A stretch of 64,000 bases of DNA from Pocillopora damicornis (Eukaryota). Below the pieces are notes generated by a model, which searched no databases, was not told the origin of the DNA, and saw only the letters and a program-made list of their open reading frames with translations. Numbering within the stretch: the stretch's first letter is position 1; the number at the start of each line of letters is the position of its first letter. Of this stretch, positions 13,233 to 47,761 are shown in pieces. The stretch lies in assembly GCF_003704095.1 (NCBI RefSeq), contig NW_020843537.1:62001-126000 (forward strand). The letters are read 5' to 3'. The translations under genes and the position numbers were made by a program.

Positions 13233-13597
13233 ACATAATTACGCGGATGTTCGAGACACTTTAGGGACAACGAGAGTCAAATTATACAGTCAAATACTTG
13301 TTCGAATCGAAATCGCTATGTAAATGTCAAGGTGCTTTTTTGCAGATAGTCAATAAAGTAGTCCGAACAGTGTTGAAATAAAAAGCACCGTTGTTACTTC
13401 GGTGTAAATTCTATAGTTTTCTTAAGTAGTAGTTATCGCATCTACGTTTTATCTATGGAGATTGAAAGGTACTTCTCAGTAGAGCGATCTCCGTCAACAT
13501 GAAATGTTATTGACTGCTTTTTGGGAGCGCAAATTATCATTATATGGTAAATTATCAGGTTTTGTTCACGTGATTAAGCTAACAAATATTTCTGTCA

Positions 13598-13640
13598 GTT
13601 CAGTGAAACTAACCATCCTTGCAAAATGCCGTTTTCTTGA
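13598..13640 (+). pseudogene. CKMPF-family orphan tail
   Basis: FSETNHPCKMPFS-TGA plus spacer, joined without a gap to unrelated upstream DNA. Confidence 0.75.
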
Positions 13641-14229: not shown

Positions 14230-14766
14230 AAGAAATGCAACACCTATCACGTCAGACAGTGTTCTGATCCACTGTATTTTGACCAGGATTGTCTCCGCCG
14301 GGTGAAATTGGCAGTTGTGTGTCGTTTCGTAGGAGACGTAAGCCATCGTGACGTAAAAAAGGCTAATGATGGCAGGTGTTAAAAGTGAAATTAATGCGCC
14401 GATGTACATTGATAGACAAACTGTACAAAGAACGGATGGTCTGAATCGCTTCCAAGCCATGTCGTCATCTTCATTTTGCCGATCGTCTCCATCTTCATCT
14501 GGTGAGCTCGCGCCGATGACCAGATTTCTAACTCGAGGATTACCAACTGACAAGAGATCATAATAGTCGTCCGATGGTGGTGAATATTCCTGACAAATGG
14601 GTTTATCAACGGGATAACAATTCCACTTTCGACCCTCACCGCTCAAGCTATCGTTATATCCAAAGGTCTCCGCTTCAGGCTCATCAGGGTCGTAATGCTC
14701 TGTCACGCCGTGGGTGAAGCTGAATAAAATACGAGCAAAAACTTCAATCAGCAGACTGTTATTCAT
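14230..14766 (-). CDS. CKMPF family, 5' part (truncated by gap)
   Basis: Open frame MNNSLLIEVFARILFSFT...IQWIRTLSDVIGVAFL; upstream 14767-15081 is homologous to 465-798. Confidence 0.8.
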
Positions 14767-15767
14767 TGTCCGCGCTACAGAGTCTTCGAGTGCACACTTG
14801 AGATCTTCGATAACGAATGAACATGTTTCGAATAAGCTCCAGGCTTTTTCATTTGATGTTTTGAAAGTGAAAGTGCCAACAAAGCAGAAACAATCTGCAT
14901 GTTAGGGAAAGTGTTGACTACACTTATTCACTGAAAATTTGAGAAAAAGATGTTGACGATCAACATTATTAATTATATATGCTTCTATTGTTTGAATTTT
15001 AAAGAACTCCTCATAGGGAGGTAGTCAGAATGAATATTTCAGCTCGTCGACATGTAATGAACATGTTTCGAATAAGCTCCACTAAGATGTGAAATATTGA
15101 CTGGGACGATATTTATCTTTCCTATACTTTAACGAATTCTTTNNNNNNNNNNNNNNNNNNNNNNNNNNNNNNNNNNNNNNNNNNNNNNNNNNNNNNNNNN
15201 NNNNNNNNNNNNNNNNNNNNNNNNNNNNNNNNNNNNNNNNNNCTTTTTAAACTTACCTAAGAACTGGACGCATATTTCCGTTCTCTCAGGCTTTCTGTTG
15301 GAACGAAACTTTGTTTTTTGTGCCTGGATTTGCCAAAGTTTTTTATAAAATTGTATTTCATTTGTGTCAGGGGGCGTAGATGGGAAATTATTGGTTTATC
15401 CTGTAACTCTTTTCTCTCTTGATATGCCAGAGATGCAGGTTTCTCACATATGTAAACAGAGAACTGAAAAAAGCAATTTTTATGCGGTGTGAAGACCCTT
15501 TTCTGGGGTGGGGTGGGGGTAGGTAGTGCCAAATATTATTGGCTATTATTTCAATATTTATTACCAGCCACTTTTTCCACTTTTTTTAGCTTTTCTGGAG
15601 GACGAGGCAATATGGCCACGTTTGATCACAATTCACTGGAACATTACATATAGCACCTTTAATTTTCCTCTGTTATTCTTTTGGCATGACAATTATGTTT
15701 TCAATGCGCTGGACTATTATTATTTGTCCTAGTTTTTGGAGATCTTCCAGCTCAGTTGGGATGTCGT

Positions 15768-16670
15768 CTACATATAAGTTGTTAACTGACATGGAAAACT
15801 GCCTTGATTGACTTTAGAGTGACAAGTCTTACAGATAAACTCTTTTCCATCAAATGACAATAGTGTATTAAAAATATCCTGAGAAGGGTGACTAGTGTTA
15901 TTGAGTTTTAAGACAGATTTTTTATAAAGTGTTCTGTTTAAAACACATGTACCTTGAGGCTGCCCTCTTCCATACAAATCTCTAGCGTGAGAAACAAATA
16001 TTTTGAACCCCATATTCAAAGATTAGTACAATAGATTGCAACAACAATACACCTTTCTGTTAATATGAAATTGGTGTAGTTTTCAGATATGAGCGACTCA
16101 AAGACTCTTCGTAAAGAGGTTCAGCAGTTTCTTGGTGAACAGTACCAGAGTAGCTTTCACTGTATTCCAGTTGATAATCAGTATCAAACACATTTAATGC
16201 TGTGGATAATTCTGACTGCATTAAAAACACCTGTCTGGCTAATCGTGACAAACTTGATTTCCAATTTTCGTTGACAAACTGATTTCCAACATTCATTATT
16301 TGAAAACTCATTGCAACACATTGTTGTCCTGCATTTTGTCCAAAAACTAACTCGTTACCTTGACAATATGGAGCTGCTATTGTTTTGTTAGGGTCAACAT
16401 ATATTAGAGGACCAGGATCTTTTTCTATGTCTGTACTTAATTTATAGTTGCAATAATTTGCTATATGATCCTCACTCTTGCAAGAAAACAATGTCAATTA
16501 TGGGCTGGCACGATATTTTATCTTTCTTATACTTTGACGAATTCTTTCACGACAGTTTAAATTGAACGTCATCTTATTTACTAGCTTTATAGCATTTACA
16601 TAACAGTAAAATGTAGATGACATGGGTATACATGAAAGAATACGTGCATAGACAAGTTCACTAACCCTTC
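15768..16670 (-). mobile_element. Degraded Helitron-like ORF fragment: 2A-like motif, herpes-tegument-type cysteine protease-like domain, Cys-rich region
   Basis: LSTDIEKDPGP; YCQGNELVFGQNAGQQCVAMS; NRTLYKKSV...SFDGKEFICKTCHSKV, resembling the Cys-rich region upstream of Rep in animal Helitrons; broken by stops and deletions. Confidence 0.65.
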
Positions 16671-18109
16671 TGAATGCCGTTTTCTTGAGAGTGCGTAACA
16701 AGTGAGGAATGTGGACTAAATCAGAGTTCCTTTCGTCTTTGAGCTATATTTACCTGGATCAGATAAAAATGAGCTTCAACTAAGAGGAAAATGGATAGGC
16801 TCACGCAATTTATCTCGAGACATGACTTTGTTATTCTTTCAAACAATTGTACAAGTAGTCTTATTTCCTAGAATAAAATGACTGAGGTACCACACACATA
16901 ATGGTTGATTATAACTTCTATTGTATCGATTAACCAATAGCTATTAAATAAAGGTATAAACTGCACTCTCTAGGGGTATAAAGGCTAATGAAACACGCAA
17001 AGAGTTTTCAAATCACTCAGCCTATACTCGGGAGAAAAATGTTGTTCCGTTTACCAAGCATCAAGAACCGATCGAAATGTTATATCAATGCTATATGAGC
17101 CTGGAGTATTGTTAATACTTGAAATGAGAAGAGTAAGTCAGTTCTTAGTTGCTTTATTTTGCTGAGTGTAAAATTCCATAGTTATAGAATGAGTGATTTG
17201 AAAGTAATTCTTTAGTTTGTGGAGGTTCAAACGTTTATGTTGCCAAAGTAATTCTCTGTTAATATACATCAACCATTGCTTCCGGACATCAACTAAGTCA
17301 TAAGTTGTATTATCATGTTGAGTTCAAAGTCTGCCTAGGCGTAGTTTCCAAGCTCCTCGTCCGTGAGGTGCTCTCAAACTTTTGCAAACTCAGAGAGAAG
17401 CGTCTCCTTTGGCAGATTGTTTAAAAAAATTTGTAATAAAACAATTACTTTATTAATTTTCCACATAATGTTAAGGACGGGAAAATGTTTGGCTCTCGGT
17501 CATGATTTCGAGTCAAATATTGTCCCACCTGGCTCTTCCACTCAGTCATTAAGTAAATTGGAAGATGAGACGTTATAGTCAATATTGCATCCCCTTTTCT
17601 TGACCCTCACCCCACCCCTCGGGATGAAGTGTGGGACTTTCAGTTGCGCACTAGCAGTTGTACTTAAAGGGCAAAAGTTTACTAACACTGCATCTAACTA
17701 AGTCTGGCGTACATTTTTAGAACTTTAGAACAGATTGGTTTAGGTCGATTTTTAGAACTCTGAAGCAGGGGTTTGGTTCTCTGCGTTAAATTCTAGCATG
17801 AGTTCACAAGTGTGAAGTTCAGTATATTAATTTTAAGAATCTCATGAGATTTAAAAATACTCAGTGATACTACACACCAAAACGTCTAATAAGTTATTTA
17901 TTATCCAGCTCCTTTCTGATAAGTCTTTCTGCTCATGTCTTATAAGGCTGGAAAGGCAAAGCGGATAGAGAAGCGTAGCGCGCGCAATCGACTGGTTAAA
18001 CAGGTTTTTNNNNNNNNNNNNNNNNNNNNNNNNNNNNNNNNNNNNNNNNNNNNNNNNNNNNNNNNNNNNNNNNNNNNNNNNNNNNNNNNNNNNNNNNNNN
18101 NNNNNNNNN

Positions 18110-18129
18110 GCAAAATGCCCTTTGCGTAA
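18110..18129 (+). other. CKMPF-family last codons emerging from a gap
   Basis: (C)KMPFA-TAA followed by the same 3' flank as 7196 onward. Confidence 0.65.
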
Positions 18130-19789
18130 AGAATTTCTGAAAACTAGATGCCGGCAGTCGTTCAGCCTTCATTGTGTTAATTGGCTCGTGTTGGTGCTAG
18201 AGTTTGATGACATATTACACTTACCGGTTATTATCATCTAACTGCTCAAAGCACAGTACAAATAACGCGTGAATAGAGCACAAATATCCCGCGATATTGT
18301 ACGGTTACTTAGACAGTTAGTTATTTTGTGCTGTAAAAAAACCTGTTTAACCAGTCGATTGCGCGCGCTACGCTTCTCTATCCGCTTTGCTTTTCCCGCC
18401 TTATAAGAAATGAGCAGAAAGACCTAGCAGAAAGTAATTGGATAATAAATAACTCATTAGACGTCTTAGTGTGTAGTATCGCTGAGTGTTTTACTTTTAG
18501 ATTCTTAAAATTTATATACTGATTTTTACACTTGAATATAATTCTCATGCACTCGTGTTAGAATTCAACGCAGTGAACCAAACCCCTGCTTCTGAGTTCT
18601 AAAAATAGACTTAAACCAATCTGTTCTAAAATTTTTAAATATTCGCCAGACTTTGTTAGATGCAGTGTTGATAAACTTTTGCCCTTTAAGGACAACTGCT
18701 GGTGTGCAACTAAGAAGTCCCATACCTCATCCTGAGGGGTGGGGTGAGGGTTAAGAAACGAGGATGCACTATTGACTGCAATGTCTCATCTTCCACTTTT
18801 ATTAACTTAGTGACTGAGTGGAAGTGCCGGACGGGGGAACATTTGACTCGAGATCATGTCCGAGAACCAAACATTTTCCGTTCTCTAATATTATGTGAAA
18901 ATTTAATTAAGTAATTGTTTTATTATACATTTTTTGGAACAATCTGCTAATGGAGTCACTTCTCTCTGAGTTTGCAAAAGTTTGAGAGCACTTCACGGAC
19001 GAGGGGCTTGGAAACAAGGCAAACTTTGAACTCAACATGATAACCCAATATCTGCTACAGATATTGGGTTATTATGGCGACTTCACACGCCTTTGTATAC
19101 TGACTGAATTCTCTTTAAAAAATTATAGTTTTCATAGTTACTTTAATGTATAACAATATTCCTTATAACTTTGTTAATGCCAGGAAATCAAGGATCGTTG
19201 TATATTGACATACTTTAACATCGGCGATAAAAAGATTTGAACCTCCACAAAATCAATAATTACTTTGAAATCACTCGTTCTGTAACGATGTAATTTTACA
19301 CTCAACAAACTTAAAGTAACTAAGATCTTATTTACACTTCTCACTTCAAGCATTAACAATACTCCAGGCTTATATATTATATATAACATTTTGATCGATT
19401 TGCGATGCTTGGTAAACGGTACAACAGTTTTCTCCTGAGTATAGGCTGAGTGATTTGAAAACTCTTTGCGTGTTTTATTAGCCTTTCATAGTGAGTTATT
19501 AAGCCTCTATACCACTAGAGAATGCAGTTCATACCTTTATTTAATAACTATTGGTTACTCTACATATAAAGTTATTATTAATCATTATGTGTTTGGTACA
19601 TTTTATTCTAGGAAATAACAGACACTTGTACAATTCTTTGAAAGAATAACAAAGTCATGGCTCGAGATAAATTGCGTGAACCTGTCCATTTCCCACCCAG
19701 TTTGAGCTCTTATTTATCAGATCCAGATAATAGTGCGTACAGACAAAGGAACTCTGATTTAGTCCACATTCCTCACTTGTTGCGCACTC

Positions 19790-20090
19790 TCAAGAAAACG
19801 GCATTTTGCAAGGATGGTTAGTTTCACTGAACCGCCCGTGTAAAATTTCTATGATACACCCGCTGGACCACAATGCTAAGGAAACTACATTAAGAATTGC
19901 TGCAAGTATACGTCTTTTTCATCTTTTCCGCCAAACAGCCCCGACAGCCATGTTCTGTTAGTTTCTATCGCAAGGGATACGCTGGTGAAAAACCACTCAA
20001 TCACCAATAAAATGGATGTTTGGATGGCAAATGATTTAAGCAAATTTGCAAAGGATTCGTTTTCGTAAATAAGTTGATACACGAAGAAGA
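19790..20090 (-). pseudogene. CKMPF-family pseudogene, 3' part
   Basis: 4-nt deletion in ETHYQ; RWK changed to AGA TGA AAA (19919-19921); ends HPCKMPFS-TGA. Confidence 0.85.
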
Positions 20091-21493
20091 NNNNNNNNNN
20101 NNNNNNNNNNNNNNNNNNNNNNNNNNNNNNNNNNNNNNNNNNNNNNNNNNNNNNNNNNNNNNNNNNNNNNNNNNNNNNNNNNNNNNNNNNCAGAATGGAT
20201 AATCAATAACTTATTAGACGTTTTGGTGTGTAGTATTGCTGAGTATTTTTAAATCTCATGAGATTCTTAAAATTAATATATTGAACTTCACACTTGAATA
20301 TAATTTCTTATGCACTCATGCTAGAATTCAATGCAGCGAACCAAACACCTGCTTCACAGTTCTAAAAATAGACTTAAACTAATCTGTTCTAAAGTTTTAA
20401 ACTATTCGCCAGACTTCGTTAGATGCAGTGTTGGTAAACTTTTGCTGGTGCGCAACCGTAACGTCTTCTACTTCATCCTGAGGAATGGGGTGAAGGTTAA
20501 GAAACGAGGATTTACTATTGACTACGATGTCTCATCTTCCAATTTACTTAATGTCTGAGTGGAAGAGCCAGGTGGGAGAATATTTGACTCGAGATCATGA
20601 CCGAGAGCTAAACATTTTCCTGTCCTTAAAATTTTGCAAAAACATCATCAAGTAATTGTTTTATTATACATTTTTGAAAACAATCTGCCAAAGGAGACAC
20701 TTCTCTCTGAGTTTGCAAAAGTTTGAGAGCACTTCACGGACGAGGGGGAAACTAGGCAGACTTAGAACTCAACATGATGACCAGTATCTACTGCAGATAT
20801 TGGGTTATCATATCAACTTCACACGCCTATGTATACTGACTGAATTCTCTCAAACAAATCAGAGTTTTCATAGTTACTCTATTGTATAATAATATTCCTT
20901 ATTTGTTTATTAATGTCAAGAAAGCAATGGTTGTTGTGTACTGAAAGAGATTTACATTGGCGATATAAACGTTTGAACTTCCACAAAATCAATAATTACT
21001 TTGAAAAAACTCGTTCTGTAACTATGGAATTTTATACTCAGCAAAATTATAGCGACTAAGAACTTATTTGCTCTTCTAATTTTAAGTATTAACAATACTC
21101 CAGGCTTATATCGTATTGATATAACATTTTGATCAGGCTCGATGCTAAAGGTAAACGGAGCAAAAGTTTTCTCCCGAGTATAGGCTAAGTGATTTGAAAA
21201 CTCTTTGCGTGTTTTACTAGCCTTTATAGTGAGTTATCCAACCTCTATACCCTGATAAGGTGCAGTTCATACCTTTATTTAATAGCTATTGGTTAATTGA
21301 TACAATAGAAGTTATGATTCTGATTGAACATTATGCGCGTGATACCTCAGTCATTTCATTCCAGAAAATAACAAACACTTTGAAAGAATAACAAAGTCAT
21401 GTCTCGAGAAAAATTGCGCGAACTTGTAAATAAGTATTGCTCAGAGACAAAGGAACTCTGATTTAGTCCACATTCCTCAGTTATTGCGCACTC

Positions 21494-21677
21494 TCAAGAA
21501 AACGGCATTTTGCAAGGATTGTTTAGTTTCACTGAACCGCCCGTGTTAAGTTTCTATGATACACACGCTGGACCACAATGATAAGGGAACTGCATTAATA
21601 ATTGCTACAAGTATACGTATTTTTCATCTTTTCCACCAAACGGCCATGACAGCCATGTTCTGATAGTGAGTTTCTAT
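21494..21677 (-). pseudogene. CKMPF-family pseudogene, 3' part
   Basis: IETHYQNMAVMAVW...PCKMPFS with TGA at 21624-21626. Confidence 0.85.
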
Positions 21678-21777
21678 NNNNNNNNNNNNNNNNNNNNNNN
21701 NNNNNNNNNNNNNNNNNNNNNNNNNNNNNNNNNNNNNNNNNNNNNNNNNNNNNNNNNNNNNNNNNNNNNNNNNNNNN

Positions 21778-22317
21778 ATTCTTAGGTTTATACTACAGGA
21801 CTACAGTTCTCCATATGACATTTTACTAAGCAAAGTCAACTTAAAATCTCCATTCATTAGACGCCTCCAGAACTTCATGATCACGTTATATAAGTATCTA
21901 TTCCTTACGAATTATCCAGGTTATTTGAAGGATATGTTTACCGTACGGTCTTCATCCTAAAATTTGGGCGAAAATCATATCATGTCCCTTCCCAACCCAA
22001 TAACAACGACATACGGTCTGCACTCATAGCAAAATATGGAACTCTCTCCCAGACACTTACAGAACATTAAATTTTCTAGAATTCAAGCAGGAGATCCTCA
22101 GATATGAAGCTTTTCCACAGTAGATCTACAAGTTATGTTTCCCTCTTAGTTTTCCCTCTTAGCTTTTAGTTGTATATAGTTTAGAAATAATATTGAAATT
22201 GTAAGATAGCATATTTTTATCTCATTTTAGCTTTTTTCTCGAAGATATTAGCTCTACAGCTACACTGAATTTCGAGCTTAAATAAAGTATATGTATGTAT
22301 GTATGTATGTATGTATG
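21778..22317 (+). mobile_element. Non-LTR retrotransposon (CR1/L2-like) 3' end with (TATG)7 tail
   Basis: LRFILQDYSSPYDILLSKVNL...TTTYGLHS...AKIWNSLPD C-terminal motifs; AATAAA at 22281 then TATG repeats 22290-22317. Confidence 0.85.
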
Positions 22318-22404
22318 ATTCGAACGGACACATTTTAGAATAGCACATAACTGTACATGCTCAAAGTGGTCGCTGGCCAAAAAACACCACACTTATCTTC
22401 CTTC

Positions 22405-23152
22405 ATCAAATCTTAACTGAGAGATTTATAGACGCGTGCGCACCGGAGGAAAATGAGAAAAAGCTAAGCGGCTTATCAGATGAAGATCGAGCAATGGCTT
22501 GGAAGCAGCTCAGATCATCCACTCTTTCCGCAAAGTGGAGAGCAATGTGTACTGGTGCTTTGATTCCACTGCTGACTGCTACTGTTATCGGCGTACTATA
22601 TATAATAACCTACGTCTGCTATCAGACTATATACAACTGCCAATTTCATGACACGGAGACAATTCCTGAGAAAGCACAATGGATCAGAACATTGTCTGAT
22701 GTCACAGGTTGTGTTTTCCTGCACTTGTGGTTCTATGGAGGCGTGCTCTTACTTTTTCGACCATATCAGGTAATGGGGTTAAACGGGAAACTGTTCCTTG
22801 TAGCTTTTCTTCTGTTTTCTTTGGATGCAACTTATCGTGTGGCTCTTCAACTCCTTGGGATATCGCGTTCTAAACTTTCTGTGTTACTAAAGTTTCCGTT
22901 GAACGGTTTGTTCCTCCCCAGTATATGTTGGAAAAATTATCTCTCGACAAATGCATTTCGTACTCTAACAAAAAGGCGGTATTTGGTTCTAAAAATTATA
23001 TCGCCGAGCCGTTTCTCTTTCATAATAGGCATCTTCGTACCATCTTACATTTACCTGAAGTACGGCAAGCAAGATGCGAAAGGAAAGCTACTTATGGCAA
23101 TCTTCTCGCCTCTCATCGGGGTTGTTCTTGAGGTGATCTCTCGACTATGCGT
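22405..23152 (+). pseudogene. CKMPF family, 5'-truncated copy (3' end in gap)
   Basis: IDACAPEENE..DEDRAMAWKQLR...LIGVVLEVISRLC; the N-terminal ~80 codons are absent from contiguous sequence. Confidence 0.7.
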
Positions 23153-24477
23153 NNNNNNNNNNNNNNNNNNNNNNNNNNNNNNNNNNNNNNNNNNNNNNNN
23201 NNNNNNNNNNNNNNNNNNNNNNNNNNNNNNNNNNNNNNNNNNNNNNNNNNNNAGGAGATGAACAGAAAGACTTAGCAGAAAGCAGTTGGATAATAAATAA
23301 CTTATTGAACGTGTGTAGTATCGCTGAGTAATTTTACTCGTTGTTTGTATTTTGACTCACCCTACGGGCTCGACTTAAATCTCATGAGGTTCTTAAAATT
23401 AATATACTGAACTTCACACTTGAATATAATTTCTTATGCACTCATACTAGAATGCAACGTAGTGAACCAAACCCCTGCTTCAGAGTTTTGGGATCGAAAA
23501 GAATTTTATAATACGATTCGCTGTCATTAATAGTGACCTTCAATATTACGGAAAATAGACTTGAACCAATCTTTTCTTAAGTTTTAGACTATTGGCCAGA
23601 CTTAGTTAGATGTAGTGTTGGTAAACTTTTGCCCTTTAAGTAAAACTGTTAGTGTATAACTGAAAAGTCCTGCACTTCATCCTGAGGGGTGGGGTGAGGG
23701 TTAAGAAACGAGGATGCACTATTGACTTTAATGTCTCATCTTCCAATTTACTTAATGACTGAGTGGAAGAGCCAGACAGGAGAATATTTGACTCGAGATC
23801 ATGACCGAGAGCCAAACATTTTCCTGTCCATCATATTATGCGAAAACTTAAGTAATTGTTTTATTATACATTTTTTTGGAAACAATCTGCCAAGAAAGAC
23901 ACTTCTCTCTGAGTTTACAAAAGTTTGAGAACACTTCACGGACGAGGGGCATAGAAACTAGGAAGACTTTGAACTCAACATAGTAACCCAATATCTGCTG
24001 CAGATACTGGGTTATCCCGTCAACTTCACACGCCTATGTATACTAACTAAATTCTCTCAACCAATCAGAGTTTTCATAGTTACTCTAATGTATAACAATA
24101 TTCCTTATTACTTTATTAATGTCAGAATAGCCATAGTTGTTGTGTATTGACAGATAATTATATTGACGATGTAAACGTTTGAACGTCCACAAATCAACAA
24201 TTAGTTTGCAAAAACTCGTTCTGTAACTATATAATTTTACACTCAACAAAATTAAAGCAATTAAGAACTGAATTTTACATATGATCCACCGCATGTGGTA
24301 AACAAATATCATGTTTAACTCATTTTTCCGCAAGGTTTGTTCTTGTCATTATGTAGTTTCATTAAATTGACCGAAATGAACCATATTGTATTTGTTTGCC
24401 AAGGATTAGACATGCAATTCTGTAGATATTGTTGTAAGAGCAGTTTTTTTTGCTGATACTTTTTTTTTTTTTTTTTA

Positions 24478-26082
24478 ATCAGAGGGCACGGTAACGAATC
24501 CTACAATCTGATTGGTTCTTTACCCGGTCAGTATTTTCCTATCTCTGCCCACGGGCCACGGTAACGCTTTGGTGAGTCGCCGAGTACATCCCTATTTCCC
24601 TACCATTCCTACTTTACATTTTTCATAAATAAATCTCGTTTTTCCGGCTGGGCAGTATTTTTAAGCAAAGACGTTGATCGCAACCTCAAGCCGATAAATA
24701 ACTCATTAATTCTCTCTTTTCGCTCTCTCAAATCACTTTGGTTGACAGAAAATATTGGTTTCAAAATGAATTTGTATTAGCAATAGTGTCATTACGTGAC
24801 AAGCGGCCTAAAAACCGTCAATAATTAATTTTAATCATTCACAAAAAGTACCTAGAAAGTTAAAACATGAGGTATTTGGTTAAAGTTGAACTAATCAATG
24901 AAAAAAGGCCGCATTGAATCTTCTCGTGTCTCGTTCGAGTGTATCATTCGAATTTAGTTTTTGTGGAGGAAAGACCAGATTTACACACGCCATTGTAGCA
25001 AACAAATTAAACGAGCAAACTCTCACAACTTCAAAAAAAAATTTGAATTTACTTACAATTACTTTCCTCGCCGTTTCCTTAAAAAACAGAGGTAAATCTT
25101 CGTACATGAATTAATCGTCGATGAGGGTGAATAGTACTTCCCGTTTGATTAGAAACTCAGTGTTTTTGAAGAAAACATCGTCGTGACAGTCCTTGCCAAA
25201 CTAGTTTCGCTGTTTTTCAAAAGTGTACATGCGCTTTTTTTTCTTACGCACTCTCTAATTGNNNNNNNNNNNNNNNNNNNNNNNNNNNNNNNNNNNNNNN
25301 NNNNNNNNNNNNNNNNNNNNNNNNNNNNNNNNNNNNNNNNNNNNNNNNNNNNNNNNNNNNNNNNNNNNNNNNNNNNNNNNNNNNNNNNNNNNNNNNNNNN
25401 NNNNNNNNNNNNNNNNNNNNNNNNNNNNNNNNNNNNNNNNNNNNNNNNNNNNNNNNNNNNNNNNNNNNNNNNNNNNNNNNNNNNNNNNNNNNNNNNNNNN
25501 NNNNNNNNNNNNNNNNNNNNNNNNNNNNNNNNNNNNNNNNNNNNNNNNNNNNNNNNNNNNNNNNNNNNNNNNNNNNNNNNNNNNNNNNNNNNNNNNNNNN
25601 NNNNNNNNNNNNNNNNNNNNNNNNNNNNNNNNNNNNNNNNNNNNNNNNNNNNNNNNNNNNNNNNNNNNNNNNNNNNNNNNNNNNNNNNNNNNNNNNNNNN
25701 NNNNNNNNNNNNNNNNNNNNNNNNNNNNNNNNNNNNNNNNNNNNNNNNNNNNNNNNNNNNNNNNNNNNNNNNNNNNNNNNNNNNNNNNNNNNNNNNNNNN
25801 NNNNNNNNNNNNNNNNNNNNNNNNNNNNNNNNNNNNNNNNNNNNNNNNNNNNNNNNNNNNNNNNNNNNNNNNNNNNNNNNNNNNNNNNNNNNNNNNNNNN
25901 NNNNNNNNNNNNNNNAAATCACAAGTATGATTTCAGACCAAAATTGCACGATATGAGGTTCAATTACCACTTTATTACATCCATTTTGAAATTGCCCAAA
26001 TACAGAACTTAGTCAGTTCAAATATTTTATTGATGCAGTGCTAAGCCGGTTTGAAATTAAATTTATCCATTTCTTGAGGGGG
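24478..26082. repeat. Interspersed repeats, probably non-autonomous transposon pieces, partly in a gap
   Basis: Non-coding; begins abruptly after a poly-T run; unrelated to cluster flanks; resembles common cnidarian repeats (recollection only, not searched). Confidence 0.35.
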
Positions 26083-26181
26083 NNNNNNNNNNNNNNNNNN
26101 NNNNNNNNNNNNNNNNNNNNNNNNNNNNNNNNNNNNNNNNNNNNNNNNNNNNNNNNNNNNNNNNNNNNNNNNNNNNNNNNN

Positions 26182-27219
26182 NGAGGTATGAATTGCAAAT
26201 TCCTGCATCAGCTTTAAAAGTGAAATATTTTGTAAGAAGATGAACTGATACAAATACAGGACGCCATTAACAGACACAATAGCAGTCGATTCATAAAGCA
26301 TGCTTAAAATTACGATATCAGCCATAAGTCTTTCCCGCCGAGGAGTGCGAAAACTTCCCCAAGGAGCTGATTTTCTTTGTAAAATTACATGGAGAATGTG
26401 ATCGATGAAAACCATAGTGCTTCTCTCTATGACTTCTGCAGCACCATGGACTATCCCAAGAATAGCAATAGACTTGGTGTTATCAAGGTCTGCTTGCAAC
26501 ACTCGAAACATAAACGCTGCTCCAAAATACAACGGCGTAAGCAAGACGAACGAACGTCCTGGATGAGTTACACGCCATAACCGCTGAACGCATATTCGAG
26601 AGATCACCTTAAGAACGACCCCGATGAGAGGCGAGAAGATTGCTATAAGTAGCTTTCCTTTCTCATCTTGCTTGCCGTACATTGGGTAAATATAAGATGC
26701 TACGAAGATGCCGATTATCATAGAGAAACAGACTGGCAATATCATTTTTAAAAATAAATACCGCCTTTTTGTTAGAGTACGGAATACATTTGTTAAGAGA
26801 TAAGTTTGCCAACATACACTGGAGAGGAAAAGTACGTTCAATGGAATCCTTTGTAACACAGAAAGTTTAGAACGAGATATTCCAAGAAGTTGAAGAGCCA
26901 CGCGATAAAGTGCATCCAAAGAAAACAGAAGAAAAGCTACAAGGAACAGTTTCCCCTTCAACCCCATTATCTGATATGGTCGAAAAAGTAAGAGCGTACC
27001 TTGAAAGAACAACAAGTGCAGGAAAACACAACCTGTGATGGCAGACAAAGTTCTAATCCATTGTAGTTTCTCAGGAATTGTCTCCGTGTCATTATACTGG
27101 CAGTTGTTGATAGTTTGATAGCTGACGTAGGTTATCATTATATATAGTGCGCCTATTAAAGCAGCGGTCAACAGTGAAATCAAAGCACCAGTACGTAATG
27201 CTTTCCAAAATGTCGAAAG
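26182..27219 (-). CDS. CKMPF family, central part (both ends in gaps)
   Basis: Uninterrupted frame LSTFWKALRTGAL...QEFAIHT with all family motifs of that region. Confidence 0.85.
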
Positions 27220-27319
27220 NNNNNNNNNNNNNNNNNNNNNNNNNNNNNNNNNNNNNNNNNNNNNNNNNNNNNNNNNNNNNNNNNNNNNNNNNNNNNNNNN
27301 NNNNNNNNNNNNNNNNNNN

Positions 27320-28172
27320 TTATCTCTTAACAAATGTATTCCGTACTCTAACAAAAAGGCGGTATTTATTTTTTAAAATGATATTGCCGAGCTGTTTCTC
27401 TCTCATAATCGGCAACTTCGTAGCATCTTACATTTACCCAATGTACGGCAAGCAAGATGGGAAAGGAAAGCTACTCATAGCAATCTTCTCGCCTCTCATC
27501 GGAGTCGTTCTTAAGGTGATCTCTCGACTATGTGTCCAGAGGTTGTGGTGCATAACTCATCCAGGATATTCGTTCGTCTTGCTATCGCCGTTGTATTTTG
27601 GAACAGCGGTTATGTTTCGAGTGTTGCAAGCAGACCTTGATAACATCAAGTCTATTGCTATTCTTGGGATAGTCCATGGTGCTGCAGAAGTCATAGAGAG
27701 AAGCACTATGGTTTTCATCGATCACATTTTCCATGTAATTTTACAAAGAAAATCAGCCCCTTGGGGAAGTTTTCGCACTCCTCGGCGGGAAAGACTTATG
27801 GCTGATATCGCAATTTTAAGCATGCTTTATGAATCGACTGCTATTGTGTCTGTTAACGGCGTCCTGTATTTGTATCAGTTCATCTACTTACAAAATATTT
27901 CACTTTTAAAGCTGATGCAGGAATTTGCAATTCATACCTCAGTTGCGCTGGTTATTGAATGGTTTATGACCAGCGTATCCTTAGCCATCGAAACTCATTA
28001 TCAGAATATAGCAGTTATGGCCGTTTGGAGAAAGAAATGGAAAAGACACGTTTTGGTTGCAATGGCAAATCTGGTTCCATTGGCTCTCTGGATGACACCG
28101 CACCTCCTAGATATTGTACATGGGCGCTTCGATGAGTCTAAAGATCGCCCGTGCAAAATGCCCTTCACTTAA
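27320..28172 (+). CDS. CKMPF family, 3' half (5' end in gap)
   Basis: Uninterrupted frame YLLTNVFR...DRPCKMPFT-TAA. Confidence 0.85.
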
Positions 28173-29064
28173 AGAACATGTGGCTGGCAACAATTAAGTC
28201 TTCTCAGGTCTCCCCGCTTCAAAATTGATTATCATGGGCTAGTGAAACATTGCGCGAACTGCATCTAATACCAGTAATGCGCTCACCTTGCAAGGTGAGC
28301 GCATATACGCATGCACATTATTCCAAAGCAAGTTTCAGGAGTTCGATGGCGTTTCTTGGAAACTCATAGAATAAGATTATTACGCATTCGTGTGATTGAA
28401 GGCACCGTTCCTTGCGGGCAGAGCTCTCATATTTCCGTATCTTTCACGATGTTTTTATGATGTAACTTTTCAAACTTACCAAATTATGTAATTAATCATT
28501 TAAGTTACATTAAAAAAGAAACTCAAACAAAACTATAACATTTGGATATCATCAAGAACTTTAAGTTGTAATAATCCTTAGTTTTAATGGTCACGAAATT
28601 AAATGAAAAAGAACTTGCACTATTTTGACTCTTTTAACTGAAATAGTTTAAATCTAATTGACTTAGATTTGTTCTGTTACTCTCCACCGTCATTTATCAT
28701 GCGATCGTTTATCTCAAACTACAGTGGTGCTAAGAAACACACCTTTTTTTTTAATTTCTGTCATATATCCCTCGCTCTGGATATGGTTAATTATTTAAGT
28801 CAGATANNNNNNNNNNNNNNNNNNNNNNNNNNNNNNNNNNNNNNNNNNNNNNNNNNNNNNNNNNNNNNNNNNNNNNNNNNNNNNNNNNNNNNNNNNNNNN
28901 NNNNNNACTTAATCACCAGTAGAATTGACGTTTGGGACTTTTCGAAGAGTTATTCCGATTGGTTAATAAATTGATACGAGTACAGAACGTTATTCACAGT
29001 CACTATAACAGCTGATTCATACTACATACTCATGATTGCGATACTCAAANNNNNNNNNNNNNNN

Positions 29065-30644
29065 ACGAGGAGTGCGAAAACTTCCCGAAGAAGCCGATCA
29101 TCTTTTCAAAATCACGTGCCAGAAATATATTTTAGCTTAATCGGGTGAACAAAACCTGATCATTTACCATAATAATATTTTATGTTGACGGAGATTGNNN
29201 NNNNNNNNNNNNNNNNNNNNNNNNNNNNNNNNNNNNNNNNNNNNNNNNNNNNNNNNNNNNNNNNNNNNNNNNNNNNNNNNNNNNNNNNNNNNNNNNNNNN
29301 NNNNNNNNNNNNNNNNNNNNNNNNNNNNNNNNNNNNNNNNNNNNNNNNNNNNNNNNNNNNNNNNNNNNNNNNNNNNNNNNNNNNNNNNNNNNNNNNNNNN
29401 NNNNNNNNNNNNNNNNNNNNNNNNNNNNNNNNNNNNNNNNNNNNNNNNNNNNNNNNNNNNNNNNNNNNNNNNNNNNNNNNNNNNNNNNNNNNNNNNNNNN
29501 NNNNNNNNNNNNNNNNNNNNNNNNNNNNNNNNNNNNNNNNNNNNNNNNNNNNNNNNNNNNNNNNNNNNNNNNNNNNNNNNNNNNNNNNNNNNNNNNNNNN
29601 NNNNNNNNNNNNNNNNNNNNNNNNNNNNNNNNNNNNNNNNNNNNNNNNNNNNNNNNNNNNNNNNNNNNNNNNNNNNNNNNNNNNNNNNNNNNNNNNNNNN
29701 NNNNNNNNNNNNNNNNNNNNNNNNNNNNNNNNNNNNNNNNNNTGACGGCCATGTTCTGATAATGGATGGCAAAAGATTGAAGGAATTTTACAAAGGGTTG
29801 ACTTGGCAGGTAAACAACTTGATATGGGCACAATACGGTGTAAACAGGCATGACACCAACTGATTAATACGACATGCTCACGATGGCGATTTTAGCTAAT
29901 TAGTCTCTCACGACGAGGAGTNNNNNNNNNNNNNNNNNNNNNNNNNNNNNNNNNNNNNNNNNNNNNNNNNNNNNNNNNNNNNNNNNNNNNNNNNNNNNNN
30001 NNNNNNNNNNNNNNNNNNNNNNNNNNNNNNNNNNNNNNNNNNNNNNNNNNNNNNNNNNNNNNNNNNNNNNNNNNNNNNNNNNNNNNNNNNNNNNNNNNNN
30101 NNNNNNNNNNNNNNNNNNNNNNNNNNNNNNNNNNNNNNNNNNNNNNNNNNNNNNNNNNNNNNNNNNNNNNNNNNNNNNNNNNNNNNNNNNNNNNNNNNNC
30201 ATCACCGCTGAGCCGAAATATACCGGTGCCATAAAGACGTATGAATGTCCCGGTATACTGGGTAAATGGAATAAACCGCGATGAAACCAAGAATATAGCA
30301 CAAATAGCTTGNNNNNNNNNNNNNNNNNNNNNNNNNNNNNNNNNNNNNNNNNNNNNNNNNNNNNNNNNNNNNNNNNNNNNNNNNNNNNNNNNNNNNNNNN
30401 NNNNNNNNNNNNNNNNNNNNNNNNNNNNNNNNNNNNNNNNNNNNNNNNNNNNNNNNNNNNNNNNNNNGTTTGAAAATTTATTTTACCTGTCATGCTTAAA
30501 ATAAGGGAGAACACTGTAAAAACGAAACAAAGGGACGGCCGCAAGTGCTGGTGACCCAAATGCATTTAAGGCTTGTAAACCAACACGACAAAGAGCATCC
30601 AAGCAATGCGCAAAGAAAGTGGCCAGAAAGAGCTTTCTGTCTAN
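29065..30644 (-). pseudogene. Heavily degraded CKMPF-family fragments among gaps
   Basis: Islands: HVILKR..SFRTPR (29065-29125), TPRRERLI...HYQNMAV (29742-29921), PGHSYVFMAPVYFGSAVM (30200-30260). Confidence 0.7.
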
Positions 30645-34338: not shown

Positions 34339-35490
34339 ATGAGTACAAGCACACTATTAGAGGTATTTGGTCACATGGTGGTCAGTTTTACGAAAGGCGT
34401 GATAGCGTTTTACAACCCAGATGAACCAGAGTTCACGTCAGAGTCCTTGGGCTACAATCCATTAGAAAGTACAGGTCGAGAGTGGGACTATCATCCCTTG
34501 GATGAGTTCATTTATCAAGAATACAGCGATAGAGGGCACACACCTGGCTCCTCTTATATACCGTCAAGAAATATTGCTGTAAGAGTTATAGACGCTTGCT
34601 CACCCGAAGAAAAGGAAGAAACACGAGGTGAACAGCGAGGAGATGACAGAGCAATGGCTTGGAAGAGTTTCAGACCTTCCACTTGTCACACAATTTGGAA
34701 ATCACTGTATACTGGAACTTTGATTTCATTACTAACTGCAGCAATCATCGGCTCTCTATTCTCGTCGTTCACTTATCTCTCTTACGAAACTGTACTCGAT
34801 TGTCCGTTCCACTCCATTGAGTCAATTCCGTCACAGATACAATGGATGAAATGTATATCCGGGATCTTATCTTCTGCCTTTGTATACATGTGGTTCCCTG
34901 TGAGTATGTTACTTCTATTTCGTCCTTACCAGTTAATCGGAGTGAAAATGAAACTGGCGCTTGCTGCTTTCTCAGTGTATTGCTTGGATACCCTTTATCG
35001 TGTTGGACTACAGGCCTTTGAAGTTTTACAGTCCAAGGCATTCACATCACCGAAACTTCCGCTCAACTTTCTGTTTCTTCTTAGTGTATGTTTGCAAGTT
35101 TATCTTGTAACGAGCCACTTCTCGGTCAGCCTTTCGAGGAGGCAACGAGTTTATTTATTCTTACAACTGATTCTTCCAAGCTGTTTCAGTTACATTGTTA
35201 CTTTCATTACAATTTACACAATTTACCCGGCATACAATAAACAAAAAAATGAAGGTAAATTACTGATTGCCATCCTCGCTCCTCTGGTTGGATTTGTACT
35301 CAAAGTAATTTGTAGGATTTCTGTTCAGCGGCTAAGGAACGTTACACATCCGGGATATTCATACGTATTACTGGCGCCGCTGTACTTCGGATCAGCGATT
35401 GTGTTTCGAGTTTTACAAGCAGATCTAGACAGTTTGCGATCTATGGCTATTCTTGGAATAGTTCATGGAATTGCGGAGGTCTTAGAACGA
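34339..35490 (+). CDS. CKMPF family, 5' ~70% (3' end lost in gap or insertion)
   Basis: Open frame MSTSTLLEVFGH...HGIAEVLER. Confidence 0.85.
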
Positions 35491-37534: not shown

Positions 37535-39145
37535 ATGAGCAGTACATTGATAGAGGTGTTTGGCCATATCGTTTTCAGTTTTACACGAAACGTGACAGAG
37601 CATTATAACCCAACAGAACCTGATTTTACGGCAGAATCTTTTGGCTACGATCCTCTACAGAGCACAGGTCTGGAATGGAATTACCTTCCGGTTGATGAAC
37701 TTATTTATCAAGAACACGAGGACGATGAAGTCACAAGCCCGGATTATTTCGCGGCAAGCAGTCTTAACGTGAGAGTTCTAAACGCCTGTTTACCTGATGA
37801 AAAGCAAGAAATACAAGACGAACAGCAAAATAAAGATAGAGCCATGGCTTGGAAGAGACTCAGACCATCCGCCATCTGCACAGTTTGTAGGTCAATGTAC
37901 ATTGGGGCTTTGATTTCACCGCTGTCTGCTACCATCATAGGTTCACTTTATATGCTTATCTCCTACATCTCCTACCAAACTGAACTCAACTGCCAATTTC
38001 ACTCACACGATTCCATTCCACTGAAAATACAATGGATTCGAACATTGTCTCAAGTGATAGCGTGCGTTTTCCTTTACATGTGGTTCTTTATAGCTACGCT
38101 TTTCCTTTTCCGACCATACCAGTTAAAAGGGGTTAAGAGAAAATTAATCTTCGTTGTCTTTCTGATGTTTTGTTTGGATACACTTTATCGTGTACTCCTC
38201 CAAGCCTATGGAATATCTCATTCGAAGATATCAACATTAAAAAGGCTGCCACTTAACTTTCTATTTTTGATCAGTATATGTTGGCAAGTTTATATTCTAA
38301 CTAATCATTTCCGCATACTGTCCAGAGGGCGGCGCCCAAACTTATTTTTTAAAATACTGTTGCCAAGCTTAGTTACTTTCCTTCTTGGCATCCTCATAAC
38401 TTCGTTTATTTACCCCGTGTACAACAAGCAAAACGGGAGAGGAAAATTAGTAATTGCCCTCTTTTCGCCCCTCAGTGGGGTTATCTTCAAAGCGATCTCC
38501 CGAATTTGCGTTCAGCGGTTATGGAACATAACTCATCCGGGATATTCATATGTCCTATTGGTGTCTTGGTATTTTGGCTCGGCGATTATTTTCCGAGTTT
38601 TGCAAGCAGATTTAGACAGTTTGCAGTCCATTGCCATTCTTGGGATAGTCCACGGCTTTGCAGAAGTCATAGAACGCAGCACCATGGTTTTTATTGATCA
38701 CATTTTTCATGCTATTTGGAAAAAAAAATCAGTTCCTTGGGGAAACTTCCGCACTCCTCGCCGTGAGAGACTGATGGCTGATGTCGCCATCATAAGCATG
38801 TTATATGAATCAGCTGGTATAGTGTCTGTTAACGGTGGTTTGTACTTGTATCAACTCATTTACTTACGAAGCAGTTCACTTTTAAAGCTACTGCAGGAGT
38901 TTGCTTTTCGCACCTCAGTTCAGCTGGTCATTGAATGGTTTTTCACTAGCGTATCTCTCGCGATCGAGACTCACTATCAGAACATGGCTGTCATGGCTGT
39001 TTGGCGAAAAAGATGGAAAAGACACTTTTTGGTAGGGGTAGTAAATGCCGTGCCTTTAGCTTTGTGGACAAGCAATTATCTCATAGAGATTGTAAATGGG
39101 CGACTTAATGAGGCTGATCAGCCATGTAAAATGCCGTTTACCTGA
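37535..39145 (+). CDS. CKMPF family, complete intronless gene, 536 aa multi-pass membrane protein
   Basis: Intact ORF; ATG chosen by homology with other copies (MSSTLIEVFGH); ~10-11 hydrophobic segments. Confidence 0.92.
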   Translation: MSSTLIEVFGHIVFSFTRNVTEHYNPTEPDFTAESFGYDPLQSTGLEWNYLPVDELIYQEHEDDEVTSPDYFAASSLNVRVLNACLPDEKQEIQDEQQNKDRAMAWKRLRPSAICTVCRSMYIGALISPLSATIIGSLYMLISYISYQTELNCQFHSHDSIPLKIQWIRTLSQVIACVFLYMWFFIATLFLFRPYQLKGVKRKLIFVVFLMFCLDTLYRVLLQAYGISHSKISTLKRLPLNFLFLISICWQVYILTNHFRILSRGRRPNLFFKILLPSLVTFLLGILITSFIYPVYNKQNGRGKLVIALFSPLSGVIFKAISRICVQRLWNITHPGYSYVLLVSWYFGSAIIFRVLQADLDSLQSIAILGIVHGFAEVIERSTMVFIDHIFHAIWKKKSVPWGNFRTPRRERLMADVAIISMLYESAGIVSVNGGLYLYQLIYLRSSSLLKLLQEFAFRTSVQLVIEWFFTSVSLAIETHYQNMAVMAVWRKRWKRHFLVGVVNAVPLALWTSNYLIEIVNGRLNEADQPCKMPFT

Positions 39146-41479: not shown

Positions 41480-43060
41480 ATGCGTATCATAGAAATACTA
41501 AGTCACATCATGTACAGTTTTACACGAAGTGTGGCAGACCATTACAGCCCAGAAGATTCAGAATTTACGGCAGAATCTTCTGACTACGTTCCTCTACAAA
41601 GCACAGGTCTAGAATGGAACCATCAACCGGTTGATGAGCTTATTTATCAAGAATACAGCCACTCTGATAACGGTTTTACTATAAGGGTGCTGGACGCTTG
41701 TTCACCAGAGAAGAACGAAGAAATTCCAGAAGATCAGCAAGATGAAGACAGAGCGATGGCTTGGAAGCGACTTAGACCATCTTCACTTCGCACAGTTCGT
41801 AAATCAATGTACTTCGGTGCACTGATTTCAATACTGACGGCTATGGTCATAGGCTCGTTGTATTGTTTGATCAGTTACGTATCTTTTCAAACCATGTTTA
41901 ACTGCCAATTTCACCAAAAGAAGTCCATCCCCGTGAAAATTCAATGGATGAGAACATTATCTGATGCTGCAAGCTGTGGTTTTATTTACATGTGGTTCCT
42001 TGTGAATATCTTTTTTCTTTTTTTACCGCATCAGCTTCAAGGGCTGAGGAGGAAACTTATTTTCGGTACTTTTATGCTATATTGTTTGGACGCACTTTAT
42101 CGTGTAATCCTTCAGAGCTCGGGAATATCCCATTCTAGGCTAACCAAAATACAAATGATTCCACTCATCGTTTTATTTCTTGTTAGCTTATGTTGGCAAG
42201 GTTATCAATTATGGAATCGCTTCCAAGTATTGTCACGAGGACGTATCTTTTTTTTTGTGCAAATTGCAGCACCGGGCTTCTTTACTTTTCTCATTGGTAT
42301 CGTCACGGTGTATTTCACTTACCCAATGTACAACGAAGAAAATGAAAACAGAAAACTTCTTATTGCAATCTTTGCTCCCCTCTCTGGACTCCTTCTCAAA
42401 GTCATCGTGCGAATTTGCATTCAATCCTCATGGAACATCACACATCCGGGATATACCTACATCTTGTTCGTGCCTCTTTATTTCGGCTCAGCGATTTTGT
42501 TTCGAGTAATGCAGGCAGAACTTGAAAACATCAGCGCAATCACTATTCTGGGAATAATCCACGGGGCTGCAGAAGTTCTAGAACGAAGCACCATGGTTGT
42601 CATCGATCACATATGTCATGTTGTTTTGAAAAGAAGAGCAGTATCTTGGGGAAGTTTTCGTACTCCTCGCCGTGAGAGACTAATGGCTGATATCGCTATC
42701 ATTAGTATGCTGTATGAATCAACTGCTATAGTGTCTGTTAACGGTGTTCTGTACTTGCACAAATTTATTTACTTAAAGGAAAACTCTCTTTCAACGTTAT
42801 TCCAGAGGTTTTTGGTGGCGAGCTCAGTCCAGCTAGTGATTGAGTGGTTTTTCAACAGCATCTCTCTGGCAATTGAGACTTATCATCAGAACATAGCTGT
42901 CATGGCTGTTTGGCAACGAAAATGGAAAAGACACGTTTTGGTGGCGGTGATCAACGTGATCCCTTTAGCATTATGTTCTACACTACCAATTATTCAATTT
43001 ATGCACGGGCAGCTTGCTAAGTCCCGAACTGACCAGCCATGCAAAATGCCATTTTCTTAG
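41480..43060 (+). CDS. CKMPF family, complete intronless gene, 526 aa
   Basis: Intact ORF MRIIEILSHIMYSFTR...DQPCKMPFS-TAG. Confidence 0.92.
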   Translation: MRIIEILSHIMYSFTRSVADHYSPEDSEFTAESSDYVPLQSTGLEWNHQPVDELIYQEYSHSDNGFTIRVLDACSPEKNEEIPEDQQDEDRAMAWKRLRPSSLRTVRKSMYFGALISILTAMVIGSLYCLISYVSFQTMFNCQFHQKKSIPVKIQWMRTLSDAASCGFIYMWFLVNIFFLFLPHQLQGLRRKLIFGTFMLYCLDALYRVILQSSGISHSRLTKIQMIPLIVLFLVSLCWQGYQLWNRFQVLSRGRIFFFVQIAAPGFFTFLIGIVTVYFTYPMYNEENENRKLLIAIFAPLSGLLLKVIVRICIQSSWNITHPGYTYILFVPLYFGSAILFRVMQAELENISAITILGIIHGAAEVLERSTMVVIDHICHVVLKRRAVSWGSFRTPRRERLMADIAIISMLYESTAIVSVNGVLYLHKFIYLKENSLSTLFQRFLVASSVQLVIEWFFNSISLAIETYHQNIAVMAVWQRKWKRHVLVAVINVIPLALCSTLPIIQFMHGQLAKSRTDQPCKMPFS

Positions 43061-43741: not shown

Positions 43742-45351
43742 ATGAATAGCAGCACACTGATAGAGCTCTTTGGTCAGCTCATATTCAGTTTTACGCGAGG
43801 CGTGGCAGAGAATTACAATCCAGACGAACCAGAATTTACAACGGAGTCTTTGGGCTATGATCCTTTAGAATGTACCGGTCGGGAGTGGAATTACCTACCT
43901 GTTGACGAGCTTATTTATCAGGAATACAGCGACATGGAAGGCTCGAATTTGAACTATATGGCGGCGAACAGTCTTAGAATACGGGTTATAAATGCATGCT
44001 CACCAGAAGAAAACGAAGTTGTATATGACGAACAATATGGAGAAGACAGAGCAATGGCTTGGAAACGGCTTAGACCGTCAGCACTCCGCACAGTTGGTAA
44101 ATGTACGTTGGAGCTTTGATCTCAATTTTAACGGCTTCCATGATAGGTTCCTTGTACATGCTGATAACTTATCTCATTTACAAATTTGGAATCGTCTGCG
44201 AATTTCAGAAGTCCATTCCAATACAAGTACAGTGGCTCCGGACAGGTTCGGTGATCATCACCTGTGCCTTTGCTTACATGTGGTACTTCGCTAATATACT
44301 TAGTCTATTTCGCCCTCACCAGTTAAATGGGGTAAAACGAAAACTAATCCTAGTTTGTGTCATTGTCTTTTGTTTGGATGCAATTTACTGTATAATTTTA
44401 CAAGTCTTTGGAATATCTCACTCACCGTTTTCTACGCTACAAAAGACCCCTCTCGACGCATCGTTTTTCGTAAGTGTATGTTGGCAGACCTATTTCTTAA
44501 CAAACCATTTGCTGATACGAAAATCCAGAAAACAACGGGGTATTATTTTCATGCAAATGATTCTGCCCACCCTATCTACTTTTATTCTCAGTGCGACGAT
44601 GATATTTCTCGTTTTTCCAGCGTACAATGAACAAAACAAGGAAGGAAAACTTTCAATCGCTTTATTTGCTCCCCTCATTGGTGTTGTACTCAAAGTCATC
44701 TCGCGAATCTTTGCCCAGCGGTTATGCAACATTACACATCCAGGATATTCGTATGTCTTACTTGCGCCGTTACATTTTGCATCAGCGATTGCGTTTAGAA
44801 TCTTACAGGCGGACCTCAGTAGTGTGCAGTCCATGGCTATTCTTGGTGTAATTCACGGCGTTGCAGAGGTCATAGAACGAAGCACCATAGTCTTCTTTGA
44901 CCATGTTTGTCATGTTATATGGAAAAGAAAGACAGCACCCTGGGGAAGTTTTCGCACTCCCCGCCGTGAGAGATTAATGGCTGATATAAATATCATGGGC
45001 ATGTTGTACGAATCAACTGCTGTTGTCTCTGTTAATGGATTTTTACACCTATATCAATTAGTTTTCTTAAGAAATTATTTCATCTTAGAGCTGCTTAAAT
45101 CATTTGCTATCCGGACCTCTATACCCCTGATAACTGAATGGTTTTTCACAAGCGTTTCTTTAGCGATCGAAACTCGATATCAGAATATGGCTGTCATGGC
45201 TGTTTGGCGAAGAAGATGGAAAAAACATATCTTAGTAGCAGTGATAAATGCAGTGCCTTTAGCTCTTGCAACAAGTTCGAACTTAATAGACGTTGTTCAT
45301 GGACGTTTTAATGAATCTAGTCAGGTTTGTAAAATGCCATTCGCCAGCTGA
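43742..45351 (+). pseudogene. CKMPF family, full length with a single 4-nt frameshift at ~44100
   Basis: gtaaatgtac versus gtaaatcaatgtac in copy 41480; both halves otherwise open. Confidence 0.85.
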
Positions 45352-46261: not shown

Positions 46262-47761
46262 TACCTTCCTCTACAAAGAACAGGTCTAGAGTGGGACTAT
46301 CAACCTGTTGATGAGTTTATTTATCAGGAATATAGCGACAGGGAAGTCAGAACCTCTGACCCTCTCACAGTCAGCCGCCATCAAGTATTGGTTATAAATG
46401 CATGTTCACCAGACGAAATCGAAGAAAAACAAGAAAGTGGACAAGATGAGGACAGCGCAATGTCTTGGAAGCAACTCAGACCATCTGCTCTTTGCACAGT
46501 TTTGAAATCAATGTACACTGGAGCTTCGATTTCTCTGCTAACAGCGGCCATCATCGGCTTGCTTTACATGTCAATCTCCTATCTTTGTTACAAAACCGCC
46601 CACAACTGTGAATTTTATCCCCACAAAATTCCAGTCTCAGTGCAGTGGGTGAGAACATTATCTACACTAATTTCATTTGCTTTTCTTTACATGTGGAACT
46701 TTGCGAGGATGTTCTTTCTCTTTCGGCCATATCAGTTACTAGGAGTGAAAGGAAAACTTGTTCTGGTTTCCATTCTTGTTTACTTTTTAGACGCACTCTA
46801 TCGCGTGGCTCTACAAGCTTTAGGAATATCTAATTCCAGACTCTCCGTATTCCTAACGATTCCACTGAACACTTTGTTTCTTATCAGCATATGCTTGCAA
46901 GTTTACTTCTTAACAAAGCACTTCTGCTTCCGATCAAGGAGACTTAGAGTGAGTCTGTTTTTACAGATGATAATGCCTGGCTGTTTCTGTTTCGTATTCG
47001 CTATTGTCATAGCTGCTTTCATTTACCCACTGTTCAACGAATAAAACGAAGACGAAAAACTATTGATAGCTGTCTTCACACCTCTCACTGGGGTCGCACT
47101 GAAGGTCATTTCGCGAATTCATGTACAACGATCATGGAACATTACACATCCAGGATATTACTATGTATTGCTGTCGCCGCTGTACCTTGGCACAGCCGTC
47201 ATGCTTCGAGTTTTGCAAGCTGATCTTAAGAGCTTACAATCCATGGCCATCCTTGGAATAATTCACGGTGCAGCAGAAGTCATAGAACGAAGTACCATGG
47301 TTGTCATCGATCACGTTTGTCATGTTATTTTGAAAAGAAAATTAGCTCCTTGGGGAAGTTTTCGCACGCCTCGCCAAGAGAGATTGATGGCTGATCTTAG
47401 CATCACGAGCATGTTGTATGAATCAACTGCTATAGTGTCTGTTAACGGATTTTTGTACTTGTACAAATTTGTCTATTTAGAAAATGTGTCTGTTTTAGAA
47501 TTGCTGCAGTCTTTTACCGTTCGGACTTTAGTTCAGCTGGTGATTGAGTGGTTTTTCACCAGCGTATCTCTTGCGATTGTGACTCATTATCAGAACATGG
47601 CTGTCATGGCTGTTTGGCGAAAAAGATGGAAAAGACACACCCTGGTGGCTATAGTAAATGCAGTTCCTTTGGCTATGTGGACCAGCACAAATCTTTTAAT
47701 CACTGTGCACGGACGTTTTCAAGAGTCCTCATATCAACCGTGCAAAATGCCGTTTATTTAG
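46262..47761 (+). pseudogene. CKMPF family, near full length with a single in-frame TAA (47042-47044); start in gap
   Basis: NE*NEDEKLLIA versus NEQNKEG/NEENENRK in paralogs; same frame on both sides. Confidence 0.85.

Follow-up and report, generated by a model that had tools for sequence, protein, structure and literature searches.

The TMEM16 (anoctamin), OSCA, and TMC proteins form a superfamily that shares a ten-helix core including transmembrane helix 10 (TM10) (PMC11534332), and membership in it has been assigned by means of Pfam clan CL0416 (PMC5868767). The calcium site of TMEM16 consists of pairs of N, D, or E residues on TM6, TM7, and TM8 (PMC5868767), and TMC proteins have a disulfide between the TM5-TM6 and TM9-TM10 loops, a signature motif where TM6 begins (PMC12250529), and a dimer made by TM10 (PMC9605866). 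A further point of reference is SPCC553.12c of fission yeast, annotated as 'transmembrane transporter (predicted)' (PMC5990653). Here, a 64,000-nucleotide stretch of the Pocillopora damicornis genome (RefSeq assembly GCF_003704095.1, contig NW_020843537.1, positions 62,001 to 126,000 of the forward strand; hereafter the window) was analyzed with respect to P0001, a gene at 37535..39145 on the + strand that encodes a predicted 11-helix membrane protein. P0001 is a single intron-free open frame of 536 codons followed by a stop, and its Met1 has a counterpart in 110 of 111 close homologues. Going by a weak resemblance of the predicted shape to anoctamin/TMC/OSCA channels, these coral and sea-anemone proteins may be an overlooked, expanded group of lipid scramblases or ion channels.

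An original prediction, made by a model from the letters of this DNA, had proposed about 11 membrane helices with the N-terminus inside and two conserved Cys outside. AlphaFold modeling, family hydropathy, alternating loop charge, and tail sequons all agree with this proposal; eleven crossings with the N-terminus inside and the C-terminus outside (N-in/C-out) are the best fit and likely. A first AlphaFold model, of the whole protein with 111 close sequences, had a predicted local distance difference test score (pLDDT) of 69.8 and left residues 13-110 unresolved. A second, of residues 100-536, reached a pLDDT of 92.7 and a predicted template modeling score (pTM) of 0.92 with an input of 149 sequences (145 left of 301 near-full-length proteins after filtering at 84% identity, and 4 added by hand); both models contain 11 long helices. 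The family-mean hydrophobic window of these helices is 1.23-2.09, helices 8-10 being the least hydrophobic (1.23-1.43). The family alignment falls into two subfamilies, referred to as near and far rows. In the near rows (n=78), the N-side segment and loops 2, 4, 6, 8, and 10 carry a net charge of +3.1 to +4.8, versus -0.4 to +1.8 for loops 1, 3, 5, 7, and 9 and the tail; in the far rows (n=71), inside segments carry +0.9 to +6.0 versus -0.8 to +1.1 outside, with +2.5 in the tail. Of the far rows, 60 of 71 have a sequon in the tail, and of the near rows, 49 of 77 have one in loop 9.

Several stretches that had been pointed out as conserved charged residues within hydrophobic runs are indeed present in P0001 (LDTLYR at residue 214, KAISR at 319, HGFAEVIER at 373, MLYES at 422, and VIEWF at 465), as are the basic WRKRWKRH (residue 490) and the terminal CKMPF (residue 531). 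In both subfamilies, D215, R219, K319, R354, H373, E377, E380, R381, E425, and E467 fall inside the best 19-residue hydrophobic windows, which sustains the claim, and further conserved polar residues inside windows are N241 and Q251 (helix 4), K304 (helix 6), and Q357 (helix 7). R323, D388, R409, R412, and D416 are found at the inner edge, and helices 1, 5, and 11 have no conserved polar residue inside theirs. On the + strand, the predicted helices are helix 1 (residues 113-148; 37871..37978), helices 2-4 (163-191, 201-224, and 234-258; 38021..38308) with D215 and R219 inside helix 3, helices 5-7 (266-298, 301-327, and 340-358; 38330..38608) with K319, R323, H334-P335, R354, and Q357, helices 8-10 (363-396, broken at 383, 408-443, and 449-480; 38621..38974) with H373, E377, E380, R381, D388, R409, R412, D416, E425, and E467, and helix 11 (486-524; 38990..39106) with a basic cytosolic start and W490. 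For WRKRWKRH, a calmodulin site was considered as a candidate by its consensus.

Cys153 in loop 1 (37991..37993, TGC, +) is C in 147 of 147 non-gap rows, and Cys531 in the C-x-x-P-F tail (39125..39127, TGT, +) is C in 145 of 146, both residues being predicted to lie outside; the C..PF tail pattern occurs in 120 of 145 proteins. They are the sole Cys columns spanning both subfamilies, and account for 2 of the 17 columns that are at least 97% conserved in both, and, beyond what chance would give, for two of the mere 8 invariant columns among 28 sequences with 22-69% identity to P0001. That open copies in the window retain both residues, and that the pseudogene starting at 5793 has lost the one in the loop, was also found as originally described: the loop-1 position is C in 10 of 11 aligned copies (W in the pseudogene), and of the 11 matches that extend to the tail position, 10 have C there, the remaining one being frameshifted with CKMPF in another frame. 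Since two exclusively conserved Cys lie on the predicted outer side, a single Cys153-Cys531 disulfide is probable. The proposed staple from loop 1 to the C-terminus is thus supported by the exclusive conservation of both residues, but not independently by coevolution, as the mean-field analysis (384 rows) was too shallow to give a signal for it. As a separate observation, 101 of 111 close homologues have Cys at position 391 (38705-38707), at the predicted inner end of helix 8, where P0001 has Phe; this position could be a palmitoylation site.

With respect to function, the reading we favor, although tentatively, is that P0001 and its relatives work like an anoctamin-type channel or scramblase; a resemblance in predicted shape weakly suggests kinship with the TMEM16/OSCA/TMC fold. 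Helices 1, 2, and 5-11 would correspond to TM1-TM9 (helix 1 to TM1, 5-7 to TM3-TM5, 8-10 to TM6-TM8, and 11 to TM9, a mapping taken from the ends of alignment ranges), helices 3-4 would form an extra hairpin, and TM10 would be missing. The acidic N-terminus would be cytosolic, the outside tail would be tied to loop 1 by the disulfide, and ions or lipids would pass along a charged groove of helices 5-10. E377, E380, D416, E425, and E467, on the helices bearing the TMEM16 calcium site, could form a calcium or salt-bridge gate; on these mapped helices, E377, E380, D416, E425, and E/D467 are conserved, and N471 is present in 62 of 71 far rows. Lacking TM10, the TMC dimer interface, the product would be monomeric or pair in some other way. 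The earlier idea that the buried charges line an ion or solute path thereby gains a lead from the weak fold match, but the path itself is conjectural. In TMEM16A, the disulfide C379-C836 joins the TM1-TM2 loop to the TM9-TM10 loop, and the conserved Cys of the P0001 family would lie in the matching loops.

Several results bear on this assignment. None of 4 window proteins matched clan CL0416 (Anoctamin, TMC, RSN1_7TM) at E <= 10, nor did any of 28 family members at E <= 1, and the protein is predicted to end 12 residues after the TM9-aligned helix, so that the ten-helix core with TM10 was not found; with neither a Pfam clan match nor TM10, the family is not filed as a member of the superfamily. 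Foldseek gave no match at E <= 0.001 against the PDB and viral models, and searches of PDB sequences and PDB profiles with the family yielded nothing useful. HHalign against coral anoctamin and TMC profiles of this genome gave <1%, and the anoctamin-TMC positive control was itself barely detected, at 0.9%. Helix-register tests lend weak support at most: summed profiles gave p 0.007-0.19 at three windows, and with helix direction preserved, seven windows gave p 0.74, 0.31, 0.21, 0.027, 0.068, 0.040, and 0.016 (control 0.23-0.018). Compared with TMEM16/anoctamin proteins (mouse TMEM16A and F, human TMEM16K, afTMEM16), P0001 lacks a Pfam or profile match, has a single exon, and is modeled with 11 helices rather than 10, no TM10, an outside tail, long helices 9-10, short outside loops, and no folded cytosolic domain. 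Unlike TMC (worm TMC-1 and TMC-2, and the coral TMC in L011), the family has no Cys column in loop 7, the counterpart of the TM5-TM6 loop, or at the start of helix 8 and no TMC signature motif. In OSCA/TMEM63, the eleventh helix is an N-terminal TM0 and the C-terminus is inside, whereas P0001 is predicted to be N-in/C-out, without an RSN1 Pfam match.

The same topology and disulfide might instead belong to an unrelated fold, a secondary transporter or a channel of a separate type, perhaps as an animal branch of the SPCC553.12c family, in which the buried Glu, Asp, Arg, and His would be substrate and proton sites; this is rather unlikely. In the ESM Atlas, PF28488 SPCC553_12c is found on 13-14% of members of the two clusters closest in features, a lead at the level of clusters, and the yeast function is itself predicted. 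Against this alternative, among 1000 Foldseek chains, whose top rows are mostly transporters, no transporter fold aligns end to end better than TMEM16/OSCA, and the two possibilities are not exclusive, as the yeast family could itself be anoctamin-like. Another alternative, in which the protein is inverted or at least one helix is re-entrant or interfacial, with the Cys not both outside and kept for palmitoylation or metal binding, appears improbable. Membrane crossing was deduced rather than read off model coordinates, helices 8-10 are the least hydrophobic, and 62 of 78 near rows have a sequon, N331-I-T (38525-38533), in predicted-cytosolic loop 6; on the other hand, it occurs in 0 of 71 far rows, where the tail sequons prevail, charge alternates regularly across 12 segments in both subfamilies, and the 11-helix model is confident.

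The third alternative concerns role rather than fold and is combinable with an anoctamin-like explanation: an expanded chemoreceptor repertoire, whose copies would bind an outside ligand and gate their own pore or signal via the basic cytosolic face. Tandem single-exon copies, many broken (56 matches on 12 contigs of the whole genome, including paralogues at 22-30% identity), and the 1215 and 1429 related clusters recovered by protein searches would suit it, as would the faster divergence of the predicted outer half (nonsynonymous divergence, dN, 0.49 versus 0.33 for the inner half) and the conservation in near rows of inside loops 6, 8, and 10 (0.91-0.94 versus 0.66-0.81 for outside loops). 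However, outer loops are short (5-15 residues), the ratio of dN to synonymous divergence (dS) is well below 1 in both halves, and faster outer divergence is usual in membrane proteins; this role is doubtful. Across 8 long-open-frame copies of this genome, dN/dS is ~0.22 with dS near saturation, and the family is under purifying selection. Seven-helix receptors (G protein-coupled receptors and insect-type seven-transmembrane ion channels) are excluded by the eleven modeled helices. The fullest combination, a TM10-less branch of TMEM16/OSCA/TMC with two helices added, used by corals and anemones as intron-free, tandem ligand- or calcium-gated sensory channels and sharing SPCC553.12c ancestry, is unlikely as a whole.

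The N-terminus is acidic, as originally predicted: residues 1-105 of P0001 contain 21 D/E versus 5 K/R, and net charge averages -16 in 70 near rows and -11 in 71 far rows (range -6 to -21, all acidic). The absence of a signal peptide, judged from hydropathy (peak 0.66 at residue 10), is not confirmed. In the first model, residues 2-21 (37538..37597, +) form a weakly hydrophobic helix, which has a conserved pattern and is no clear signal peptide. An acidic-aromatic motif, [DE]x[IV][FY][QE]E[YF], occupies residues 54-61 (37694..37717, +), where P0001 reads DELIYQEH. The motif PVDExIYQEY had been expected here, but P0001 has PVDELIYQEH, and PV occurs in the near subfamily alone. Every row counted (143 of 143) keeps E60, while position 58 is Y in 65 of 70 near and 10 of 73 far rows and F in 62 of the latter; at position 61, 37 of 73 far rows have F, and P0001 has H. 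A YxxPhi sorting or phosphorylation motif requires a conserved Tyr. With Tyr unconserved at positions 58 and 61 and E60 invariant, the suggested signaling or sorting role of IYQEY is not supported, Phe at the first Tyr position in most far rows marking the element as acidic-aromatic and not a tyrosine motif. The element may interact with a partner or with the basic cytosolic face; FFAT (two phenylalanines in an acidic tract) and LC3-interacting region (LIR) motifs, by their consensus, were considered as candidates. When residues 1-70 were docked onto the membrane domain, the outcome was 'no answer' (score 0.00, alignments unused), which is uninformative either way. Further along, the expected AMAWKRxRPS is present as AMAWKRLRPS (residue 103), containing a basic juxtamembrane motif, W106-K-x-x-R-P111 (37850..37867, +), that is predicted to be cytosolic.

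Further protein searches gave 191 related clusters with a profile of distant members and, at 50% clustering, 684 representatives. Among the best 120-150 matches of each protein search, the named ones come from Oculina, Acropora, Montipora, Orbicella, Desmophyllum, Actinia, and Nematostella, and every one is labelled 'uncharacterized' or 'hypothetical'. Full-text searches, in a collection without most subscription journals, listed no paper on the P0001 family, and six gene identifiers were without papers; supplementary gene tables of coral and anemone single-cell atlases could contain family genes, which would bear on novelty and role. The family comprises more than 1000 related sequence clusters, unnamed and without a match to the Pfam models searched. 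If it is anoctamin-like, the fold can lose TM10 and the cytosolic domain, the minimal conducting unit becomes testable, and corals would have a large set of candidate channels or receptors; if not, it represents a confidently predicted 11-helix fold without a clear solved relative. Under either reading, the conserved residues are targets for mutagenesis.

In the window, 28 tblastn pieces of the family were found on both strands. Besides P0001, one copy is whole, an intact paralogue with 59% identity (41486..43057, +), and all others are either broken or interrupted by N gaps: a paralogue with a frame change near 44101 (43748..45345, +), one with an in-frame stop near 47044 and its start lost in an N gap (46262..47755, +), one cut by an N gap (34345..35490, +), a broken one with frameshifts and the loop-1 Cys changed to Trp (5793..6782, +), and more partial or broken tblastn copies, many cut by N gaps (805..29899, both strands). 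At 1811-3053, 9140-9760, and 26182-28169, and also in L002 and L003, the sequences on either side of 100-base N gaps are pieces of one gene that overlap or are inverted, which suggests local mis-joining, so that counts of broken copies may be inflated. Contigs from RNA libraries (5 runs, 2 studies) overlap pieces of P0001, but since they cover intergenic DNA as well, they provide no evidence of its transcription.

Around P0001, TATAAATA is located at 37459-37466, ~70 bases 5' of the start codon, a start-stop ATG TAA stands directly upstream of the main ATG, and AATAAA is found at 39158-39163, 13 bases 3' of the stop. Few introns were seen in a tandem array of six anoctamin genes (G000:C1045:51000-98000; L012-L014, L018-L020), five of which have one ~520-codon open frame running to TM6, and a TMC gene occurs as a single 754-aa open frame (L011:1184-3448, G000:C3810). 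Elsewhere in the window, an open reading frame fragment at 3113-3595 (+) resembles part of the reverse-transcriptase region of a non-long-terminal-repeat retroelement, and 51862-53289 (+) encodes an F-box protein (PF12937, E 5e-11) that is interrupted by an N gap and has a tail of leucine-rich appearance.
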